Of a stretch of DNA of 64,000 nt, positions 4,070 through 13,841 are shown in pieces. The translations under genes and the position numbers were made by a program. The DNA is from Candidatus Lloydbacteria bacterium (GTDB lineage Bacteria; Patescibacteriota; Minisyncoccia; Phycocordibacterales; UBA6899), in contig JAYSTI010000051.1 in assembly GCA_043719805.1 (NCBI GenBank), positions 36,816-100,815 on the forward strand, written 5' to 3'. Under the pieces are notes generated by a model. The model was given only the letters and a program-made list of their open reading frames with translations. It was not told the DNA's origin and did not search any database. Position 1 is the stretch's first letter, and every line of letters begins with the position of its first letter.

Positions 4070-4303
4070 ATGAAACTCACCATCGCAAAAATAGACAAAA
4101 TACTTTGGTCCGGAGAAGCGGAGTCTGTCTCAGTGCCCGGCACCGACGGCATGATGACCATCCTTAGTCATCACATGCCACTTATCACTACGCTTGAAAA
4201 AGGGGAAATACGTGTGAAAACAAAGGAGGGAGGACTAGAGTCATTCCCTATCGAAAAAGGCATGCTCGAAGTCAACAAAGAGGAAACTGTCATCCTCGTC
4301 TAA
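4070..4303 (+). CDS. atpC: ATP synthase epsilon subunit, short form (beta-sandwich only, no C-terminal helical hairpin)
   Basis: MKLTIAKIDKILWSGEAESVSVPGTDGMMTILSHHMPLIT... epsilon N-domain; only 77 aa. Confidence 0.8.
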   Translation: MKLTIAKIDKILWSGEAESVSVPGTDGMMTILSHHMPLITTLEKGEIRVKTKEGGLESFPIEKGMLEVNKEETVILV

Positions 4304-4407
4304 TCTAAACTGCAGAGGTCCGTCCTCTCTAGTTTTTGGTTAAGTTGCTCTTGCATAATGCGGCGTTTTGCGGTAAAACTTTCATATTAATATTTTTTTA
4401 AAGCTTT

Positions 4408-4980
4408 ATGAATAAAAAGATACTTGTATCGGCGACAATGTTCGCGCTTGTGCTCGCGTATGTGCTACCGTTTTCAGTCAACGTCGGCCACATGCCCGAG
4501 GCATCAGCTGCGCAGTCAGACTATTTACTTGAACTCGACGGGATTGACGGAGAGTCAACTATCGAAGGTAAGGAAAAGCAGATGCAGATCGAAAGTTGGA
4601 GTTTTGGCGCATCAAACCCCACATCGGTAGGGAGTAGTGGTATGTCAGGAGGCAAAGTCTCGTTTCAGGACTTTCACTTCACCAAGCAAGTAGGCAAGGC
4701 TTCCCCGAAGCTCTTACTCGCGTGTGCAAGTGGTAAGCATATTCCTAAGGCAACACTTTCTGTTTTGCGCCCCGGTGCAGACCGTTCGATGATGTACATC
4801 AAGTACACATTTACAGACATCATGGTCACTTCCTGTAAGCAGTCTGCAGACCCGCTTATGGAATCAATCTCGTTTAATTATACAAAGATCGAGATGTCAT
4901 ACACCCCAATGACAAGCAGCGGCACCGCAGGTACGGCGGTTACAGCAGGGTGGGACCTCGGAAAGGGCAAGGCACTCTAG
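4408..4980 (+). CDS. Hcp-like (Hcp1/TssD family fold) protein with N-terminal Sec signal peptide
   Basis: Signal-peptide-like N-terminus MNKKILVSATMFALVLAYVL...SAAQS. Then the Hcp core pattern: LELDGIDGES..., ...SWSFG..., GGKVSFQDFHFTK, ASPKLLLACASGKHIPKATL..., ...TAGWDLGKGK. Confidence 0.6.
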   Translation: MNKKILVSATMFALVLAYVLPFSVNVGHMPEASAAQSDYLLELDGIDGESTIEGKEKQMQIESWSFGASNPTSVGSSGMSGGKVSFQDFHFTKQVGKASPKLLLACASGKHIPKATLSVLRPGADRSMMYIKYTFTDIMVTSCKQSADPLMESISFNYTKIEMSYTPMTSSGTAGTAVTAGWDLGKGKAL

Positions 4981-5002
4981 AAGTTTGCGGAAAATTTGAG
5001 TC

Positions 5003-5046
5003 AAAAACCCCCCTAGATTCTACCTCAGATTTTAGGGGTTTTTTGA
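5003..5046 (+). terminator. rho-independent terminator after Hcp-like gene
   Basis: aaaaacccccctag...ttttaggggtttttt GC stem flanked by A-tract and T-tract. Confidence 0.4.
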
Positions 5047-5122: not shown

Positions 5123-5160
5123 GAAATGTGCTTGCCAAGATGCACATTTTCTGCTATATT
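5123..5160 (+). promoter_or_regulatory. candidate sigma70-type promoter overlapped by an inverted repeat (possible operator)
   Basis: TTGCCA (5132-5137), 17-nt spacer, TATATT (5155-5160). Palindrome GAAATGTGC...GCACATTTTC (5123-5151) overlaps the -35 and spacer. Confidence 0.35.
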
Positions 5161-5294: not shown

Positions 5295-8200
5295 ATGACC
5301 AAGTCATTATTTGTATCGTCAGGTTATCGCACAACGCTTCGTAAGCTTGCTGCGGGTTTTCTCATGCTCTCAATCAACCTCACCGGAGGCCTCGGAGCAC
5401 TTTTTTTAACAACCGAGGTTGCGTATGCAGTAGATGCTCGCCCGGACCTTACAATTACGAAAACACACGAAGGAAATACGTACCTTAATGGGAGTTTCAA
5501 ATGGAAACTCCGTGTGGCAAATGTTGGAAATGCAGATGCTGTTTTCGGTAAAAACAACACGCTACTCCATGACAACATGCCGAGCGTTGGTGTTAATGAT
5601 TATGGCTCACCAACCTACACCACTTCATCGGGAGTATCAGTGATTGGGTCTATTTCTTGTACTCAAGGTGGAAGTGACAATGAAAATTTAACTTGCAAAG
5701 TTAGTAACACAAATGGTGATAGCGTAAGAATGGCACCAAGCAGCTTTTTTGATGTATTTGTAGATGTGAATCCGAACTCCGTAGGAACACTCACAAATCC
5801 ACGCTCACAGGGAATCTGTGTTGTGGACAAAGCTAATTCGAGTGGAGATAGTATTGTAGATGAGTCAAACGAGAATAATAATACTTGCTCCAACAGCGTA
5901 ACGGTAATAAATTCACCAAAGACATTGGAGGTAACAAAGACTGGCAGCACGGGACTGGGCACTGTCTCAGCAACGGGTATCAACTGTGATGTTGCCAATA
6001 CAGACTGCTCAGAAACATACACGCACGGAACAAACGTTACGCTTTCTGCGGTCGCTGCTGTCGGCTCAACATTTACAGGATGGTCAGGTTCTGGTTGTTC
6101 AGGCATCAACCTCTGCTTCGTTTCGATGACAGCTGCAAAGACGGTCAACGCGACATTTACACTCAATTCGTATTTGCTCACTGCTGCTAAAATCGGCAAT
6201 GGATCAGGTGCTGTTTCCTCCAATCCTGCGGGCATAAATTTTGGTGACGACTCCTCTGAGTCGTACACTCACGGCACGGCAATCGTCATGACCGCTACTC
6301 CTGCTACTGGTTCTACCTTTGCAGGTTGGTCAGGAGGTGGATGCACAGGCACAGGCAGTACATGCACCGTGACACTTACGGCAGCAACGACGGTCACTGC
6401 ATCCTTTACTCTAAATAGCTACGGTGTCACTGCAGCAAAAGCTGGCAATGGTGACGGAACAATAACCTCAACCCCCGCAGGTATTAACTGCGGTACAGCT
6501 TGTAATGAAATATTTAGTTTCGGAGCCCTTGTCACACTTTCTGCTTCATCGATGACTGGTTCAACATTCGCTGGCTGGTCAGGAGGCGTATGTTCGGGTG
6601 CAATCTGCTCCTTTATTGTTGATGCAGCAAAGTCCGTTATTGGAACTTTCACGCTTAATACGCACACGCTCAATGTTGGTACAGTAGGACTCGGCTCAGT
6701 GTCCTCAAGTCCCGGACTGGGTATTTCTTGCCCTGGTGTCTGCATGGAAAGCTATGCACACGGCACTGACGTTACCCTCATCCCAACACCAAGCACGGGC
6801 TACGCATTCTTCGGATGGAGCGGCGCATGCACTGGAAGCGGTAGTTGCGTCGTTGACATGACAGAAGCAAGAGAAGTTGTCGCGACATTCTCTGCAATTC
6901 CTGCTGAGCCTTGCCCTTCGGGAACAACTGGACCAGGCGTACCAAATTGTGCACCAATTCCCCCACAATCGTGTGAGGAAAACACTTCGACAATGACCCG
7001 TGTTTCAAGTACGACAGATGTGACGGTGGGTACACCAACTGGCGGGGCCGCAGTTGCAGTAGGATTCATTCATAGCGAATGGACAGCTTCAATCCCCGGT
7101 GCAACTTGGATATGGAGTGAAAGCCCCGTCAGCAATATCGCAGTTGACCACATCGAGTCATTCTTTGATGTCTTCACAGTTGCAGGGACTCCAACAGGAG
7201 GTACGCTTACGGTAGCTGGTGATAATTCATTCGAGGTATATCTCAATGGCACGCAGATTTTACAGGACTCTTCAGGTACAACATTTGGCTCTGCAGTCTC
7301 TACTTCTACAGGTGTGTCACTTGTGGGCGGTCAGAATACACTTGAGTTCCGTGTAAAAAATTGGGGAGTAGGTAGTACACAAGCTAACCCCGCAGGACTT
7401 CTCTATAGCCTTACCGTAAACAAAAATGCTTGTGTGCCGGTAGTAGCTCCAGTCTGCGAGCAACAGGTTAATCTCATAGAAAACGGAGGATTTGAGGTAC
7501 CCACAGTTTTATCTTGGGAGATCATCCCGTTCACTAATGCTGCGCTCAAGTGGCTTGGTGCATTTGTTACCCCGGGCGGCCTAGGCAGATTTGGCCTCGA
7601 ACTTCAAGCGGGCGTGGCAGGTGCACCGCATAATGGCAGTGCGCAGCTTGCTGAACTCGATGGTGATCATCCCACACGCATCTATCAGGATGTCGCCACT
7701 ATCCCTGGCAATGACTATTCATTGACTTACTTCTTCTCGCCGCGCCCTGATACGCCTATCTCCGAGAATATTCTTGAGGTAGCGGTTGGGGGTACAGTTA
7801 TTGATACGCATACTGGGACTACCTCGGGAAACACTGTTTGGACACCGCACACCAAAACTTTTGTTGCAACGGCAACAGTCACGCGCGTCGCATTTGCCGA
7901 TATTGGCAATGACGACAGCGGTTCAACTGGTGGCCTCGGTTCATACCTCGACGACGTGAAGTTCAGCTGTGTTGGCGTGCACGTACCAAAGGCAACTGTT
8001 GTTGCAACAAAGATTGTTTGTGACGCTGAGTCCTATCTTCCGGACTGGAGTGGGCAGTCGCACGTGATTGGCGCAACAACAGCAGCGGACTTTGTCGCAG
8101 CAAGCGGCGGCAAGTGCCGCATCGCCCCTGAATGGAAGTTCCAGTGGTCTCCGACCTCAGCAGGGAACCCGGGGGACAATGTCACCGGGGAAGTTTCCGG

Positions 8201-9452
8201 TTGGACTACATTTACGTCTTCTGCGGTCATCACACTTGGTAGTATGACCAGCGTCTGGGTCCGTGAGGTCTATGATGCTGCGTACGTCGCGTTCGCCGGT
8301 ATCACCAACACTAATCCGGTGGTGAGCGCAGAAATGTACTGTAATGGTGATGTGTATCACTATGACAACCTCGACTATGCAAACGGCCTCACTGATGGTG
8401 GAACCGTCTACTGTGTCGCATTCAACGCACTGAAGCCCGTGGCTGATACCTCTATGTCCGTCACCGTCATAAAGCATGTCATCAATAACAACGGCGGAAC
8501 AAAGGATGCGGAGGACTTCACACTTCACATACGACAGCCGGCTGTTGACATGTGCACCAATGTAGATGGCATGCAGGAGACCGTACCCGTGGAGATGTAT
8601 CGAGAAGGTGGAATGTGTTTCCCGTATAGTCAAAATACGCTCAATACTATCTTCGACTGGTTCTCTGTAAAGACTGCTTACGCAATGCCAATAATGCAGG
8701 TACTCTTTTCACCACAGACATTCCAAGGAAGCGAAGGGGGAACCATGGTCTCCGTTGCTTACGAAACCGACTATGTCGTGACTGAAGACGCTGATGCACT
8801 GTACACCACAACCTATAGTGCTGATTGTACCGGTCATGTTTCTCCAGGACAGCACAAGACATGTACGGTGACAAACAACGATATAGCTCCTGTTGTGTCA
8901 CCACCAGGCGGTGGCGGTGGAAGCTCGACGTTTGACTATTGGGGTTGTACCAATCCTTCCGCATCAAACTTCAATGCGCTTGCAAATCGTGATGATAATT
9001 CCTGCAAGATCGGCGGAGGCAATGGCGGAGGATCTGAAATCCCGCCTCTAGCTCCTCAGGGTGAAGTCTTGGGTGCATCCACTGCGGAGCCTGAGCTCCC
9101 ACTTCCTGCAGGTTGCTCCGCGTACATTCTTACTTACCAGAAATTGGGCAGGAAGAATGATGTTGAGGATGTGAAGCGCCTCCAGACATTCTTGAACGAG
9201 AGCATGAGTGCAAATCTCCCTGTGTCCGGACTCTTTGGCTCAATGACGAAATCCTGGGTCAAGAAATTCCAGAAGGCGCATAGTGCCGAAATCATTCAGC
9301 CTTGGATTGACGCAGGTCACGACATGAGTGGTCTCAAAGATGGTTCAGGTGTCGTCTACAAGACGACAAAGCGCGCGATCAATATTGCAAAGTGTGCAAC
9401 GCTGAACGAGCCAATGCCTGACCTTGCGAACGACGGCGGAATGACAAATTAA
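5295..9452 (+). CDS. 1385-aa secreted/cell-surface protein with five modules: N-terminal signal/anchor, DUF11/CARDB-like domain, four InlB-B-repeat-like modules, beta-sandwich region, C-terminal peptidoglycan-binding-like domain
   Basis: Hydrophobic N-terminus. RPDLTITKTHEGNTY...RVANVGNADA (DUF11/CARDB-like). Four ~83-aa repeats of the form G.G.V...P.GI.C...C...Y.HGT.VTL.A.P..GSTF.GWSG..C.G...C.V.M. NGGFEVP jelly-roll-like segment. C-terminal LQTFLNE...VSGLFGSMTKSWVKKFQKAH resembling PG_binding_1. Confidence 0.8.
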   Translation: MTKSLFVSSGYRTTLRKLAAGFLMLSINLTGGLGALFLTTEVAYAVDARPDLTITKTHEGNTYLNGSFKWKLRVANVGNADAVFGKNNTLLHDNMPSVGVNDYGSPTYTTSSGVSVIGSISCTQGGSDNENLTCKVSNTNGDSVRMAPSSFFDVFVDVNPNSVGTLTNPRSQGICVVDKANSSGDSIVDESNENNNTCSNSVTVINSPKTLEVTKTGSTGLGTVSATGINCDVANTDCSETYTHGTNVTLSAVAAVGSTFTGWSGSGCSGINLCFVSMTAAKTVNATFTLNSYLLTAAKIGNGSGAVSSNPAGINFGDDSSESYTHGTAIVMTATPATGSTFAGWSGGGCTGTGSTCTVTLTAATTVTASFTLNSYGVTAAKAGNGDGTITSTPAGINCGTACNEIFSFGALVTLSASSMTGSTFAGWSGGVCSGAICSFIVDAAKSVIGTFTLNTHTLNVGTVGLGSVSSSPGLGISCPGVCMESYAHGTDVTLIPTPSTGYAFFGWSGACTGSGSCVVDMTEAREVVATFSAIPAEPCPSGTTGPGVPNCAPIPPQSCEENTSTMTRVSSTTDVTVGTPTGGAAVAVGFIHSEWTASIPGATWIWSESPVSNIAVDHIESFFDVFTVAGTPTGGTLTVAGDNSFEVYLNGTQILQDSSGTTFGSAVSTSTGVSLVGGQNTLEFRVKNWGVGSTQANPAGLLYSLTVNKNACVPVVAPVCEQQVNLIENGGFEVPTVLSWEIIPFTNAALKWLGAFVTPGGLGRFGLELQAGVAGAPHNGSAQLAELDGDHPTRIYQDVATIPGNDYSLTYFFSPRPDTPISENILEVAVGGTVIDTHTGTTSGNTVWTPHTKTFVATATVTRVAFADIGNDDSGSTGGLGSYLDDVKFSCVGVHVPKATVVATKIVCDAESYLPDWSGQSHVIGATTAADFVAASGGKCRIAPEWKFQWSPTSAGNPGDNVTGEVSGWTTFTSSAVITLGSMTSVWVREVYDAAYVAFAGITNTNPVVSAEMYCNGDVYHYDNLDYANGLTDGGTVYCVAFNALKPVADTSMSVTVIKHVINNNGGTKDAEDFTLHIRQPAVDMCTNVDGMQETVPVEMYREGGMCFPYSQNTLNTIFDWFSVKTAYAMPIMQVLFSPQTFQGSEGGTMVSVAYETDYVVTEDADALYTTTYSADCTGHVSPGQHKTCTVTNNDIAPVVSPPGGGGGSSTFDYWGCTNPSASNFNALANRDDNSCKIGGGNGGGSEIPPLAPQGEVLGASTAEPELPLPAGCSAYILTYQKLGRKNDVEDVKRLQTFLNESMSANLPVSGLFGSMTKSWVKKFQKAHSAEIIQPWIDAGHDMSGLKDGSGVVYKTTKRAINIAKCATLNEPMPDLANDGGMTN
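5922..6915 (+). repeat. four tandem InlB B-repeat-like protein modules (divergent at DNA level) inside the large surface protein gene
   Basis: Repeats begin TLEVTKTGSTG / LLTAAKIGNGSG / GVTAAKAGNGDG / TLNVGTVGLGS, each containing GWSG and paired Cys. Confidence 0.6.
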
Positions 9453-9554: not shown

Positions 9555-10619
9555 ATGATTAAGTGGACAAAAAGACACTTCATTCCGACAAGTGAAAATC
9601 AGTTCCAGCCGCACTTCTTGCGTCTCAAGGTGGCGCTCTCCATCTTTCTTCTCGTCGTAACCATTGAGGCAACGTACCTTCTTGCAACAATAGCGCTCCT
9701 GCCTAGGAGTGAGCAGTTTGCAGCAATTTTTGCAGCCGTACTTATCGATCAGACTAATCAAGTACGACAAACCGACAGCCTGAGCACACTGCGTACCAAT
9801 CCTCTCTTGGAGAATGCGGCGCGCATGAAGGCCGAAGACATGGCTGCTAAGGGATACTTTGCGCATAATGCTCCGGACGGTAAAACCCCCTGGTACTGGT
9901 TCGACATAGCGGGATATGACTACGCAGCGGCGGGGGAGAATCTTGCCGTAAATTTTACCGACTCAAAAGACGTGACGGAAGCGTGGATGCGCTCACCGGG
10001 GCATCGCGCAAACATCATGAGCGGAAATTATACTGAGATAGGCGTTGCAACCGCCGCAGGCACCTACAAAGGGAAGCCCGCTATTTTTGTTGTGCAAGCA
10101 TTCGGCCGACCTTCCATCATTGCGCGACAGATCGAGCAGACATCCTCGACGGTGGCATCATTGACCGCACTTATCACCGGCAGTAATGCGCCTACTGTAA
10201 AGGCCGTACCGTCGGCCCTCGTCATAAAAACTGTTCCACCGCCACTCGCTGTGCCCGTAATGCGGATTCCGCAGGTGACCCCGGTGTCGCGCGAGGCGAA
10301 CATTCCGACCACAACCACCGTCGCCGGAGCAGAAACTGCAAAGCTTGATGCAGGAAATATTGTTGTCGCTTCTGCGGCTCCGGTCGTTGCAGCCCAGCCC
10401 TCGCAAGTCGCAAGGATTATCGCTTCCCCGCGCAGTATGACGACGACAATCTTCCTTATTTTCGGTGCACTTTTGTCGCTCGCACTAGGACTAGCGATAT
10501 TCATCAAGATACGTATTCAGCATCCGCACATAATCGCCAATGGCGTCTTGCTCATCGCCATTATGATTTCACTCACGATGATAAATGCCATACTTATGGC
10601 GTCACGCGGTGCAATATAG
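9555..10619 (+). CDS. membrane-anchored CAP/SCP/PR-1 (YkwD-like) domain protein
   Basis: N-terminal TM; CAP core AEDMAAKGYFAHNAPDGKTPWYWFD...GENLAVNF...EAWMRSPGHRANIMSGNYTEIGVA; Pro/Ala/Val-rich linker; C-terminal TM helices. Confidence 0.75.
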   Translation: MIKWTKRHFIPTSENQFQPHFLRLKVALSIFLLVVTIEATYLLATIALLPRSEQFAAIFAAVLIDQTNQVRQTDSLSTLRTNPLLENAARMKAEDMAAKGYFAHNAPDGKTPWYWFDIAGYDYAAAGENLAVNFTDSKDVTEAWMRSPGHRANIMSGNYTEIGVATAAGTYKGKPAIFVVQAFGRPSIIARQIEQTSSTVASLTALITGSNAPTVKAVPSALVIKTVPPPLAVPVMRIPQVTPVSREANIPTTTTVAGAETAKLDAGNIVVASAAPVVAAQPSQVARIIASPRSMTTTIFLIFGALLSLALGLAIFIKIRIQHPHIIANGVLLIAIMISLTMINAILMASRGAI

Positions 10620-10647: not shown

Positions 10648-11850
10648 ATGGAAAAAAATATAAATGCCGTCGTTGTGATTATGGGAATTGTCGCAGTAAT
10701 CGCCCTCGGGGTTTATTTTTTTGGCACTGAAACAACTATGCCTCCCGGACTTATTCCTTCTCCCGTTGCGACAGATACCGTTTCCTCCGTGGTCCCTACT
10801 GTGCCCGTAGTGCCGGCAAATTTACGAACAACAATCGTGAAGGAACCCGTGATGACAAAAACAAAGTCAGCCGAAATAGCAATTGCAGGCAAGCGCGCAC
10901 CTGAACTTGTCCTATCGTCTGGATTCTCAAATACTGACCCGCTACTTATGAAGGATTTCATCGGGAAGAAGGTAGTCTTGGTGAATTTTTGGACAACCAC
11001 TTCGGTGAACTCGCTGCGCACCATGCCGTATCTGAATCAGTGGCATTTTAAATACAAAGACAAGGGCTTGGTCATTCTTTCCGTACACACACCACAGTTT
11101 GCCTTCGAGCGCTCCAAGGTCACCGTCGACAAGGTGGCATTTGTGCACAACATGCTCCATCCCATCATGCTCGACAATCAATTTGGGACTTGGAATGCAT
11201 GGCATAACACCATCTGGCCTTCACAGTACCTTGTTGATGTCAGCGGCAATATTGTTTACACGCACATGGGAGAGGGTGGTTACGAGGCTATGGAAACAAA
11301 GATCAATGAATTACTGACTGCGCGTGCAAGGAAATTAAATTTGCCAGTGGAAACATATGGCGCTTTCGAGGTTCCCGCCGCCGCACAGTTGGTGGATCTC
11401 ACGAAGATTAAGAGTGGCGATATGTACTTCGGTTCAGCACGTAACAACACGCTCGCGAACGGCACGCCGCTCACCGACGGCGCACAGTACATGAAACCAT
11501 TTACGACGGTCTTGCCCAATAAGATATACCTCACGGGTTCCTGGAATATTTCAAAGGAATTTGCACGGTCGGCGATTGAGAAAGATGTCATCACCTTCAA
11601 GTACAACGCAAAAAATGTTTACGTAGTACTTGGCTCAACCAACATGACAAAAGTGCGCGTGACGCTTGATGGGCAGCCCCTTGGCGACAACGCAGGAAAA
11701 GATATTCGTCTTGAGAATGGCATCAGCAGCATATATGTTACCGATGAACGAATTTATGAGATTGTGAAAGGTGTCGACTACGGAGAGCATACCGTTGAGT
11801 TGTACGTAGAGGGCTCCGGTCTAGAGGCGTTCATTGTCATGTTCGGTTAA
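10648..11850 (+). CDS. DipZ-like thioredoxin-fold (redoxin) protein with CxxC replaced by SxxS, plus C-terminal beta-sandwich domain
   Basis: N-terminal TM; VVLVNFWTTTSVNSLRTMPYLNQWHFKYKDKGLVILSVHTPQFAFE...WNAW...WPSQYLVD..G.IVYTHMGEGGYE matches the DipZ/redoxin thioredoxin-like family where the motif is WxxSCINC. Confidence 0.65.
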   Translation: MEKNINAVVVIMGIVAVIALGVYFFGTETTMPPGLIPSPVATDTVSSVVPTVPVVPANLRTTIVKEPVMTKTKSAEIAIAGKRAPELVLSSGFSNTDPLLMKDFIGKKVVLVNFWTTTSVNSLRTMPYLNQWHFKYKDKGLVILSVHTPQFAFERSKVTVDKVAFVHNMLHPIMLDNQFGTWNAWHNTIWPSQYLVDVSGNIVYTHMGEGGYEAMETKINELLTARARKLNLPVETYGAFEVPAAAQLVDLTKIKSGDMYFGSARNNTLANGTPLTDGAQYMKPFTTVLPNKIYLTGSWNISKEFARSAIEKDVITFKYNAKNVYVVLGSTNMTKVRVTLDGQPLGDNAGKDIRLENGISSIYVTDERIYEIVKGVDYGEHTVELYVEGSGLEAFIVMFG

Positions 11851-11882: not shown

Positions 11883-12446
11883 ATGTTCAACCTGTGGATT
11901 TTTTTATATAATATGACAATGATAAACGAACAACTCGTAGGATACGTATCGGGGGAGCGTGTGCGTGGAGTTTCCGATGAAGCAATTAAGGCCGCACTTG
12001 CTGCGCAGGGGTGGAAGCCGGAGGACATCATGGCTTCGGTGGGTGGAGTTGGCGCTATTGCAAGTGGCCCAAGAGAATTATCATTCGGGAATTTATTTGA
12101 AGGACGATTGGGTCGCTGGCAATATTTTTTGACAAGCCTTTTGCTCGGCATTGCAGTTTTTGCAGTAGCCCTTTTGGTTGGTGTCGCCTCTCGTTCTTTG
12201 GGCGGGATATCTTTCTTAGTAGTAATAGCCGCTTACATAATTGCCGTACCGATCAGCATCTCACTCTCGGTGCGTCGCGCGCATGACATGAATTGGAGCG
12301 GTTGGTATGTTCTGTTCATGCTCGTTCCTTTTGTGAATTTCGTGTTTGCCCTGATCTTTCTTTTCAAACCAGGTACAGCGGGGGCAAATACCTACGGCCT
12401 ACCTCAGGGAGACCGCAATTTCAAAGATACGTTGTTAAATCAGTAG
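11883..12446 (+). CDS. DUF805-family inner membrane protein with N-terminal soluble extension
   Basis: RRAHDMNWSGWYVLFMLVPFVNFVFALIFLFKPGTAGANTYG typical DUF805 (YhaH-like); alternative start ATG at 11913. Confidence 0.55.
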   Translation: MFNLWIFLYNMTMINEQLVGYVSGERVRGVSDEAIKAALAAQGWKPEDIMASVGGVGAIASGPRELSFGNLFEGRLGRWQYFLTSLLLGIAVFAVALLVGVASRSLGGISFLVVIAAYIIAVPISISLSVRRAHDMNWSGWYVLFMLVPFVNFVFALIFLFKPGTAGANTYGLPQGDRNFKDTLLNQ

Positions 12447-12569: not shown

Positions 12570-12700
12570 ATAGTGCTTTTATCGAGAGTGTGGAGTAGGG
12601 AATTGGCCCGACGATACCACCAGCAACCACCTTTGGAGAGGACCGGTGCTAAATCCAAGCCCCTATGGGGAAGATGAATGTGGTTGGAGGAATGATGGCA
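12570..12700 (+). promoter_or_regulatory. SAM-I (S-box) riboswitch
   Basis: cttttATCGAGAGtgtGGAGtAGGGAatTGGCCCGACGAtaCCacCAGCAACC...GGTGCTAAATCCaAGC matches the S-box consensus core (AUCnAGAGnnGGnGGAGGGAnnGGCCCgAuGAA...GCAACC...GGUGCUAAAUCC); immediately upstream of metK. Confidence 0.75.
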
Positions 12701-12742: not shown

Positions 12743-12788
12743 CTTGATTGCGCCTTGGATGTATTTTATTTTTTTAATCGCTTCGTCT

Positions 12789-13841
12789 ATGTCAAACGTT
12801 CAGAGTATTTATACGGTGGAGAGTGTTACAGAAGGTCATCCTGATAAAATGTGCGATCAGATATCAGATGCGGTTCTCGATGCATGCCTCGCGCAGGATC
12901 CGAAGAGTCGCGTTGCAATAGAAAGTTTTGGCGCGCATGGTTTGCTCGTCATCGGGGGGGAGCTCACAACTGATGCCACGATCGACGCCGAGACAATCGC
13001 GCGTGAGGTGTACAAGGACATCGGGTACGATGATGACCTAGAAATTATCACACGTATCGTGCAGCAGTCACCCGACATCGCGATGGGGGTTGACACTGAT
13101 GGTGCCGGCGATCAGGGTATCATGTATGGCTACGCGACAAATGAAACGCCCGAGTATCTTCCCGGCGGAATTACTCTGGTTCACAAGCTCACAAAGGGTT
13201 TGAGTGAACTTCGCAAAAGCGGGGAATTGGACTGGCTTCGACCCGACGGAAAGGCGCAGGTGACCATCGAAAACGGAAAGGTGCGCACCGTGCTGGTTTC
13301 AACGCAACACGCCGATTCGATTACTCAGCAGGAGATACGGCAGGCGCTCATCGATAAGCTCATCCGCCCACTCGTCGGTGACGTCGGTCGCATTGAGATA
13401 CTGGTCAATCCGACTGGCAGATTCGTTCAAGGGGGATTTGAGGCAGACACGGGGCTCACGGGCCGAAAGCTCATGGTAGACACGTATGGCGGCCTTGTGG
13501 CGCACGGAGGAGGGGCATTCTCGGGGAAAGACGCCACAAAAGTCGATCGTTCTGCGGCCTATATGGCCCGCTACGTCGCCAAGAATCTCGTTGCAAACAA
13601 ACATGCAAATGAGGCTACGGTATCGGTCGCTTACGCCATCGGGCACCCTCTGCCGCTTATGGTTTCTGCGATTGATGAAGATGGGCGCGACATCAGTGAG
13701 GCCGTCAAAAAACGATTTGATTTTCGCCCGAAAGCAATCATTCAACAATTGAATTTGCGCCGCCCCATCTATCGGCAAACTGCTTCATATGGTCACTTTG
13801 GTAAAGCAGGTCTTCCGTGGGAGGAGGTCATCAAGATGTAA
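12789..13841 (+). CDS. metK: S-adenosylmethionine synthetase
   Basis: ESVTEGHPDKMCDQISDAVLDA, GDQGIMYGYATNETPEYLP, DTYGG, GAFSGKDATKVDRSAAY motifs; start chosen at 12789 (ORF-track start 12744 would lie inside the riboswitch terminator). Confidence 0.9.
   Translation: MSNVQSIYTVESVTEGHPDKMCDQISDAVLDACLAQDPKSRVAIESFGAHGLLVIGGELTTDATIDAETIAREVYKDIGYDDDLEIITRIVQQSPDIAMGVDTDGAGDQGIMYGYATNETPEYLPGGITLVHKLTKGLSELRKSGELDWLRPDGKAQVTIENGKVRTVLVSTQHADSITQQEIRQALIDKLIRPLVGDVGRIEILVNPTGRFVQGGFEADTGLTGRKLMVDTYGGLVAHGGGAFSGKDATKVDRSAAYMARYVAKNLVANKHANEATVSVAYAIGHPLPLMVSAIDEDGRDISEAVKKRFDFRPKAIIQQLNLRRPIYRQTASYGHFGKAGLPWEEVIKM

Follow-up and report, generated by a model that had tools for sequence, protein, structure and literature searches.

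A gene for an Hcp protein, the tube subunit of type VI secretion systems (T6SS), lies at positions 4408..4980 (+ strand) of the 64-kb stretch of contig JAYSTI010000051.1 analyzed here (the window), and its product begins with a predicted Sec-type signal peptide. We think it probable that this protein is exported through Sec, cleaved by signal peptidase I (SPase I) and used independently of a T6SS, probably as hexameric rings outside the membrane. By textbook description Hcp is signal-less, and Hcp found outside the cell is the standard assay of an active T6SS. The open reading frame (ORF) starts with ATG, ends with a stop codon at 4978-4980 and encodes a 190-aa precursor; the mature Hcp domain would comprise about 156 residues (4510..4977, + strand; 16.7 kDa, pI ~7), with the Pfam match at 4528-4902.

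Residues ~37-190 are a true Hcp/TssD homolog, an assignment that is secure because the Pfam profile, phmmer searches of Protein Data Bank (PDB) sequences and the predicted structure agree. In a Pfam scan PF05638 (T6SS_HCP) matched the 190-aa protein with an expect value of 2e-35 and 122.3 bits (gathering cut-off 23.5), over residues 41-165 and profile positions 2-129 of 129. The motifs on which the original prediction had based its comparison with Hcp1/TssD (LELDGIDGES, SWSFG, GGKVSFQDFHFTK, ASPKLLLACASGKHIPKATL and TAGWDLGKGK) all occur in the translation. The PDB sequences matched by phmmer were all Hcps, including Salmonella Hcp2/Hcp1 (3.5e-25) and Pseudomonas aeruginosa Hcp1 (1y12, 2.9e-24), and these alignments begin at query residue 35-38 and chain residue 4. 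Identity to the canonical, signal-less Hcps of Acidobacteriota and Planctomycetota is 45-50%. The exact 190-aa protein is present on one NCBI contig (123.5 kb) and two Logan contigs, in identical context.

A single-chain AlphaFold2 (AF2) model, made with 84 homologs in the alignment, has a mean predicted local distance difference test score (pLDDT) of 81. Residues 1-35 fall below 50, with a helix at 4-18, and most 10-residue blocks of the Hcp core score 83-98, mostly above 90; the weak blocks of the core are the long hairpin loop at 71-80 (54) and residues 121-130 (77). When the model was compared with the PDB by Foldseek, the top 50 matches were Hcp structures in 50 of 50 cases. The expect value for 4w64_A is 1.1e-15, the TMt is 0.94 for 4tv4_B (root mean square deviation 1.4 Å) and 0.88-0.90 for 1y12, and the model has the Hcp beta-barrel with one helix and an extended hairpin. 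An Hcp fold, proposed at the outset from motifs, is therefore borne out by profile, sequence and structure searches alike, and the contrary outcome, no structural similarity to Hcp, did not arise.

Signal-less Hcps start M-A-x-(x)-D-Y-F-L-K, and the alignment gives the window protein 34-36 residues more. Residues 1-34 (4408..4509, + strand) have the anatomy of a Sec/SPase I signal peptide, that is, a charged n-region, an h-region of 7-20 residues and small residues at -3 and -1. The n-region is MNKK, with a charge of +2; the h-region, ILVSATMFALVLAYVLPF, spans 18 residues (5-22) with a mean Kyte-Doolittle value of 2.27 and a best hydrophobic 12-mer of 2.59; the polar c-region, SVNVGHMPEASA, has Pro30 at -5 and Ala at -3 and -1 (A32-S-A34) and is followed by AQS(DY). 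The predicted cut after A34 (or A35) would leave a mature N-terminus that aligns within 1-2 residues of the canonical Hcp N-terminus. The translation has no Cys in residues 1-40, and therefore no lipobox, and neither a twin arginine nor a class III pilin motif of the G-F-T-L-I-E type. The cleavable Sec signal of about 33 residues suggested by the original prediction thus stands in its Sec-type anatomy and in a conserved A-x-A that abuts the canonical Hcp start; its length is corrected to 34-36.

The same layout is found in a clade of 12 relatives with 52-100% identity, in which M1, K4, L14, Y18, L20, P21, S23 and A34 are invariant. The junction P-E-A-x-A-[AS]-Q-S-D-Y is kept in the 12 clade members, position 32 is small in 10 of the 12, and Pro stands at -5 in 9. 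Over codons 2-36, dN/dS among the window and four related genomes ranges from 0.09 to 0.28, the same range as in the adjoining Hcp core. Non-synonymous change (pN) in these codons is 0.13-0.38, and synonymous change (pS) is near saturation in comparisons with the window (0.66-0.72) and runs from 0.45 to full saturation over all pairs. The ATG-AAY-AAA-AAR start is conserved; Met28, the sole codon at which translation could plausibly begin internally, is not kept in most relatives, which have V, I, T or another residue there. The extension is translated and under purifying selection, and the low dN/dS, the conserved start and the variable Met28 together rule out a start-codon artefact.

The host is, by sequence similarity, a Parcubacteria bacterium of the candidate phyla radiation (CPR/Patescibacteria), near Lloydbacteria, because the closest hcp loci come from a Candidatus Lloydbacteria metagenome-assembled genome (MAG; 81%), from Parcubacteria and from further MAGs of the same synteny, and because the best named matches of the window DnaK are Parcubacteria GW2011_GWA2_47_7 (89%) and Lloydbacteria (75-81%). 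Contamination or misbinning from a diderm was considered and is ruled out by the position of hcp right after the ATP synthase operon, by the 64-kb housekeeping block and by the DnaK matches. Among the 57 window ORFs scanned with Pfam there is no T6SS family besides Hcp, as the original prediction had claimed. All scanned ORFs are either housekeeping or without annotation; those with a Pfam match include ATP synthase, MetK, PhoH, a histidine kinase, response regulators, LeuRS, AlaRS, a Mur ligase, YceG, ribosomal proteins, RpoA and GrpE-DnaK-DnaJ. Core T6SS genes (tssA-M, clpV, vgrG) were likewise absent within ~10 kb of hcp at the related CPR and archaeal loci. The genomes of CPR bacteria are small, and to our knowledge no outer-membrane-spanning T6SS has been described in these organisms.

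Hcps that carry a signal are not confined to this clade. A word-indexed protein search returned 279 homologs, the top 12 of which share the full-length architecture. Pooling two protein searches gave 186 single-domain matches shorter than 300 aa, of which 69 have a hydrophobic extension (a 12-mer with a Kyte-Doolittle value of at least 1.8), 109 lack one and 8 are ambiguous, in a sample that is biased because the query contained its own signal. Other sub-groups bear signals unrelated to that of the window protein, such as MTTKTILLVMASVFIIGFSAQNAFA followed by ASDYFLK, MSKIWLIPLLFTILFTSSFGNAFA followed by AVDYFLK and MKRKLLITLLSAFAFAGSLQA followed by AADYLLE; in these independent lineages the unrelated signal sequences all end small-x-small right before DY(F/Y/L)LK. 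The exported fusion that had been predicted from one gene is thus supported as an architecture and is not singular, since it belongs to a large, taxonomically scattered class of signal-bearing Hcps.

In contigs sampled at one genome per species, signal status tracks taxonomy. Extended forms occur in the CPR (Lloydbacteria, Parcubacteria, Staskawiczbacteria, Paceibacterota and three further MAGs), in archaea (Nitrosarchaeum, Nitrososphaeraceae, Nitrosopumilaceae) and in some diderms (Novosphingobium, Verrucomicrobiota, Kapaibacterium, Saprospiraceae and one of two Gammaproteobacteria MAGs). At ~55 loci, mostly from Bryobacterales and other Acidobacteriota, Planctomycetota, Burkholderiales and Gemmatimonadota, the start is canonical and the core is preceded by 2-3 residues. 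The archaeal hcp neighborhoods are clearly archaeal, with family-B DNA polymerase, a ThrRS with an archaeal editing domain and Cdc6/Orc1. There hcp is usually one of a divergent pair encoding a 181-184-aa Hcp and a 248-252-aa paralog (for example L092:7169-7915 on the - strand and L092:8001-8546 on the + strand; pairs also occur in L007, L008, L010 and L096, the last in tandem).

Two to four tandem Hcp paralogs, most with an evident signal, are present in L012 (9869-11417), L060 (8028-9883), L064 (2578-3931), L096 and L165 (5450-8578). Such arrays possibly form hetero-oligomeric exported rings. The second copy in L012 also has a TSP3_bac repeat. Signal-bearing Hcps always occur as orphans or in paralog arrays, and when ORFs within ~7 kb of 22 signal-bearing loci were clustered, no partner gene family was found across lineages except the Hcp paralogs.

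A neighbor-joining tree of 182 cores places the signal-bearing forms in 24 pure groups, with ~15 state changes. Poorly resolved as this tree of a ~150-residue protein is, it suggests that the signal was gained or lost repeatedly, and it speaks against a single origin. Several sites that are conserved only in canonical Hcps (the R120-K121-x-G123 loop, Q168, G80 and Q87) are relaxed or changed in signal-bearing cores; in the window Hcp the changed positions are residues 120-123 and 168 (nt ~4765-4776 and 4909-4911), and the CPR clade has R/K-P-S/G-A-D at the canonical R-K-x-G loop. These changes may reflect the loss of T6SS-specific constraints or contacts, a comparison that is only suggestive because the signal-bearing and canonical groups differ in diversity.

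Export of Hcp without a T6SS is also indicated by a second group of proteins. An exhaustive representative search of a 1.8-billion-protein library put first, by summed score, proteins 1000-2164 aa long, each of which has exactly six Hcp domains (P0121-P0152 and others); forms with 2-5 domains also occur. PF05638 matches P0121 in six stretches at 4.8e-213. Many six-domain proteins start with RRLxxExLExRxLLA, which PMC8567305, citing Studholme et al. 2004, gives as a Planctomycetes cell-surface export signal. The P0121 gene (L091:8001-11378) has PSCyt2, PSD1 and DUF1501 genes around it and no T6SS genes within 8 kb, and the AF2 model of P0121 has a predicted TM-score of 0.73 over 1125 residues, which indicates a fixed inter-domain arrangement and would agree with a single-chain ring.

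Six-Hcp proteins without an N-terminal signal were found as well (P0136, P0149, P0164, P0172, P0195 and P0260). P0136 has Big_13 Ig-like domains and a serralysin-type Peptidase_M10_C C-terminus, and the other five have N-terminal GGxGxD-like repeats; these features suggest Hcp rings secreted by a type I (RTX-type) route. Taken together, the Sec-type, Planctomycetes-motif and RTX-type forms show repeated coupling of Hcp domains to export routes other than the T6SS, with six as the preferred copy number. No paper on tandem Hcp was found in the literature searched.

The mechanism that we favor would run as follows. The signal peptide would target the precursor to the Sec translocon, through which it would cross the single cytoplasmic membrane of the CPR cell unfolded; SPase I would then cut after A32-S-A34 to release the ~156-residue protein, which would fold outside the membrane into the Hcp beta-barrel. 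Hexameric rings of the Hcp type would most likely assemble in the cell-wall zone or in the medium without a type VI machine, and the ring would serve as a binding or scaffold module. We infer Sec export, cleavage, ring formation and the binding or building role of the ring alike. For the ring, the grounds are the oligomerization hairpin, the 45-50% identity to canonical Hcps and the six-domain relatives; in the clade, conservation is highest in the extended hairpin, SWSFGASNPTSVGSGGMSAGKV-FQDF. The roles that such a ring might have are speculative: it might carry or chaperone secreted proteins, build a structural scaffold or tube, act as an adhesin, or soak up incoming Hcp-dependent effectors as a sponge.

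The genes around hcp bear on its possible partners. The order 5' of hcp is atpA-atpG-(119-aa ORF)-atpD-atpC, and a terminator-like hairpin with a T-run after atpC (4314..4336, + strand; consensus scan) parts hcp from the ATP synthase operon. An A/T-rich element, CATATTA(A/T)T, lies at 4383-4391 (+ strand), 17-25 nt 5' of the hcp ATG, and ~17-31 nt upstream when loci such as L003 and L004 are included; possibly it is a -10 box that leaves a short leader. It was not called in the promoter scan, and no Shine-Dalgarno-like sequence was seen 5' of the hcp ATG. Downstream of hcp, a scan and RNA folding identified an intrinsic terminator with the stem CCCCUAG...UUAGGGG followed by UUUUUU (~5001..5046, + strand), whose fold has a free energy of -18.7 kcal/mol (z = -3.99; none of 200 shuffles was as stable). 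A promoter-like site, TTGCCA-17-TATATT with an extended TG (5132..5160, + strand), precedes the next gene with 10 of 12 matches and is a consensus match only. Because the strong terminator and this separate site lie between them, hcp and the next gene do not form one operon, and hcp looks monocistronic. Its GC content (0.496) and GC3 (0.555) are the same as those of the neighboring genes, which rules out a recent horizontal island.

The next gene (5295..9452, + strand) is the giant downstream neighbor noted in the original prediction. By its Pfam and NCBIfam matches, the 1385-aa product is evidently a wall-associated surface protein, with a signal peptide, four Flg_new_2 repeats, a DUF642/choice-of-anchor C domain and a C-terminal PG_binding_1 domain. 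Seven CPR genomes (the window, L003/L085, L004/L083, L005, L086, L094 and L095) keep hcp between the atp operon and genes for CAP, thioredoxin-like and DUF805 proteins and metK. In all seven, hcp is adjacent to, or 1-2 small ORFs from, genes of the 1385-aa protein family (big1385), which encode 377-1709 aa, are sometimes split and vary in number and order. These genes lie upstream of hcp (L005), on both sides of it (L095) or downstream of it, as in the window. In L085 a 9.6-kb insertion follows atpC, and hcp stays beside the surface-protein gene rather than atpC. No homolog of the giant protein was found near the signal-bearing Hcps of archaea, other CPR lineages or diderms. The expected co-occurrence of the two genes in relatives therefore holds as adjacency within one syntenic CPR clade, and does not extend to other lineages or to co-transcription.

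Other features of the neighborhood were seen along the way. Downstream of the giant gene are genes for a CAP/SCP-domain protein (9555-10619, + strand), a membrane-anchored thioredoxin-like protein with Redoxin and Thioredoxin_10 domains (10648-11850, + strand) and a DUF805 protein (11883-12446, + strand), which in these CPR genomes are conserved together with hcp as a cluster coding for exported and membrane proteins. An S-adenosylmethionine (SAM, S-box) riboswitch with 55.9 bits (12576-12680, + strand) lies directly 5' of metK (12744-13841); it is the sole Rfam match in the window, which has no tRNA or rRNA match. The 119-aa ORF between atpG and atpD (2136-2495, + strand) has no Pfam match, and an ORF of 119-120 aa is in the same place in L083, L086 and L001/L002, the three relatives with called genes there (L001/L002 being the window organism). 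The ATP synthase epsilon subunit (4070-4303, + strand) is only 77 aa long and consists of the beta-sandwich domain without the usual C-terminal helical hairpin. A short epsilon is also found in related CPR genomes, and L086 has two 77-aa ORFs at that spot.

Several observations weigh against a Sec-exported, cleaved and T6SS-independent Hcp. The NCBIfam TssD model TIGR03344 (VI_effect_Hcp1) scores the protein at 58.7 bits (6.3e-16), 0.2 below its cut-off of 58.9, and R120, K121, G123 and Q168 are changed, so that the assembly properties of the protein may differ from those of canonical Hcps. The scan for T6SS genes covers 64 kb, with genome-wide absence taken from general knowledge of the CPR. 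The extension is as conserved as the mature part (mean pairwise identity 0.63 in both), its c-region is long in this clade (12 residues), it contains an invariant Y18-x-L-P-(F)-S23, and the cut after A34 is predicted entirely from anatomy and comparison. Conservation beyond what a generic signal needs would also fit a specific sorting step or a retained membrane anchor. The latter would make the protein an uncleaved type II membrane protein, with the Hcp domain held on the outer face by a 12-residue tether, perhaps as a docking platform for wall-bound neighbors. The 18-residue h-region is near transmembrane length, the AF2 helix at 4-18 lies within the extension, and the invariant Y18, L20, P21 and S23 and the spacer before the core agree with such an anchor. 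We nonetheless regard it as unlikely, since the invariant A34, the small residue at 32 and Pro at -5 make up an SPase I site of textbook form exactly where the canonical Hcp N-terminus lies, and a ring would need to pack six anchors at one of its faces. In other lineages, moreover, the signals are short and classical, and hardly any spacer follows them. Archaeal Hcps have just 5-6 residues between the h-region and the first Hcp strand, and judging from the sequences this stretch would be too short for a retained anchor.

A dedicated partnership is another way to read the locus, with Hcp as the chaperone or assembly ring of the adjacent giant Flg_new_2/DUF642/PG-binding proteins and the two genes as one module. 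The proximity of hcp to big1385-family genes persists in seven CPR genomes despite their varying number, size and side, and the insertion in L085 separated hcp from atpC and not from the surface-protein gene. All seven genomes share one syntenic block, however, so the adjacency may simply have been inherited; a terminator and a promoter-like site stand between the genes, and the absence of giant homologs beside signal-bearing Hcps elsewhere makes such a partnership rather improbable. That the protein is an ordinary T6SS tube subunit, with an internal true start and a T6SS elsewhere in the genome, might be argued from its 45-50% similarity to canonical Hcps of T6SS-bearing soil bacteria, from the 64-kb extent of the inspected region and from the fact that orphan hcp genes are common in T6SS-positive genomes. 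We judge this very improbable, given purifying selection on the extension, the conserved first ATG and the replacement of Met28 by V, I or T in relatives, a Parcubacteria/CPR host from a group without a described T6SS, and the same architecture in Nitrosopumilaceae archaea; a Sec signal would also take the protein out of the cytoplasm, where T6SS tubes polymerize. Scarcely credible, finally, is a decaying, functionless relic of a horizontally acquired hcp with a fortuitous hydrophobic N-terminus. The orphan state of the gene, the lack of conserved partners and the patchy signal status on the tree are compatible with decay, but the reading frame is unbroken in seven CPR genomes at 50-100% identity, dN/dS is low in signal and core, the composition of the gene is like that of its neighbors, it has its own strong terminator, and the architecture recurs independently in many lineages.

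The reading that we prefer, a Sec-exported and cleaved Hcp that works without a T6SS, can be extended, quite tentatively, into a broader one. Exported Hcp rings may be a widespread and so far unrecognized class of extracytoplasmic rings or tubes that left the T6SS several times and that serves here as a contact conduit or scaffold or as an effector sponge; we consider this proposal doubtful. Their export would go through Sec in CPR bacteria and ammonia-oxidizing archaea, by a Planctomycetes surface signal, or, for single-chain hexamers, by an RTX-type C-terminus of the type I secretion system. Were the sponge version true, the lumen would capture Hcp-dependent T6SS effectors injected by neighboring Acidobacteriota or Planctomycetota, whose Hcps are ~50% diverged; in the conduit version, rings would stack extracellularly on an episymbiont-type cell and be used in cell-cell contact.

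Hcp thus seems to lead a second life, as an exported protein, that is not described in the literature searched. In that literature, with most subscription journals outside its scope, nothing relevant was found on signal-peptide, Sec-dependent or T6SS-independent Hcp, or on Hcp in the CPR or in Thaumarchaeota/ammonia-oxidizing archaea, and no paper joined Hcp, "candidate phyla radiation" and type VI secretion. The polymorphic-toxin survey of Zhang et al. 2012 mentions Hcp1 as T6SS-linked only. Databases label such proteins "type VI secretion system tube protein Hcp" (e.g. HXV39253.1, from a Nitrosopumilaceae archaeon). Automated labels of this kind mislead in CPR bacteria and in Nitrosopumilaceae archaea, which have no outer membrane and no known T6SS, and the presence of hcp is unusable as a T6SS marker in metagenomes. 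If the interpretation of the Sec-signal class is correct, the Hcp ring has been co-opted for an extracellular role. That the six-fold ring is what selection acts on outside the T6SS is suggested independently by the relatives with six domains in one chain. For the biology of the CPR, about whose host-interaction machinery little is known, this Hcp would be a candidate for a well-folded, abundant surface component.

Set beside canonical Hcp/TssD (P. aeruginosa Hcp1, PA0085, 1y12), the window protein shares the family, the fold (TMt 0.88-0.94), the extended hairpin and the GKV-FQD, ASP-L and GKHI motifs. It differs in having a 34-residue Sec-type signal where canonical proteins have Met and 2-3 residues, in its altered RK-GG loop and Q168 and in the shortened loop after the strand at 128-146; its gene is a monocistronic orphan in a CPR bacterium, without T6SS genes in 64 kb. 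A working T6SS tube subunit is defined by having no signal peptide and by its association with core T6SS genes, and the window Hcp departs from it on both counts. Orphan hcp genes and hcp-vgrG islands of T6SS-positive Proteobacteria resemble it in that hcp stands away from a T6SS cluster. Their Hcps, however, are signal-less, usually come with vgrG, effector or immunity genes, and depend for firing on a T6SS whose genes lie elsewhere, whereas the window hcp has no vgrG or PAAR nearby and its product is directed to Sec by a predicted signal.

Hcp-ET proteins likewise combine an Hcp core with a terminal segment that alters its use, but there the segment is a C-terminal toxin and delivery is T6SS-dependent, whereas the window Hcp has an N-terminal export signal and no extra domain. 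Phage and extracellular contractile injection system tail tubes (T4 gp19, lambda gpV, Afp1/PVC1) share a tube-protein fold superfamily with Hcp and form stacked hexameric rings; they differ in belonging to other sequence families, in assembling on cytoplasmic baseplates and in not being Sec substrates, and the top PDB fold matches of the window Hcp were T6SS Hcps and no phage tubes. The single-chain six-Hcp proteins such as P0121 are like it in joining Hcp domains to non-T6SS export routes, and differ in their six covalent domains, their size of 1000-2164 aa, their other export signals and their hosts, which are diderm Planctomycetes and others.

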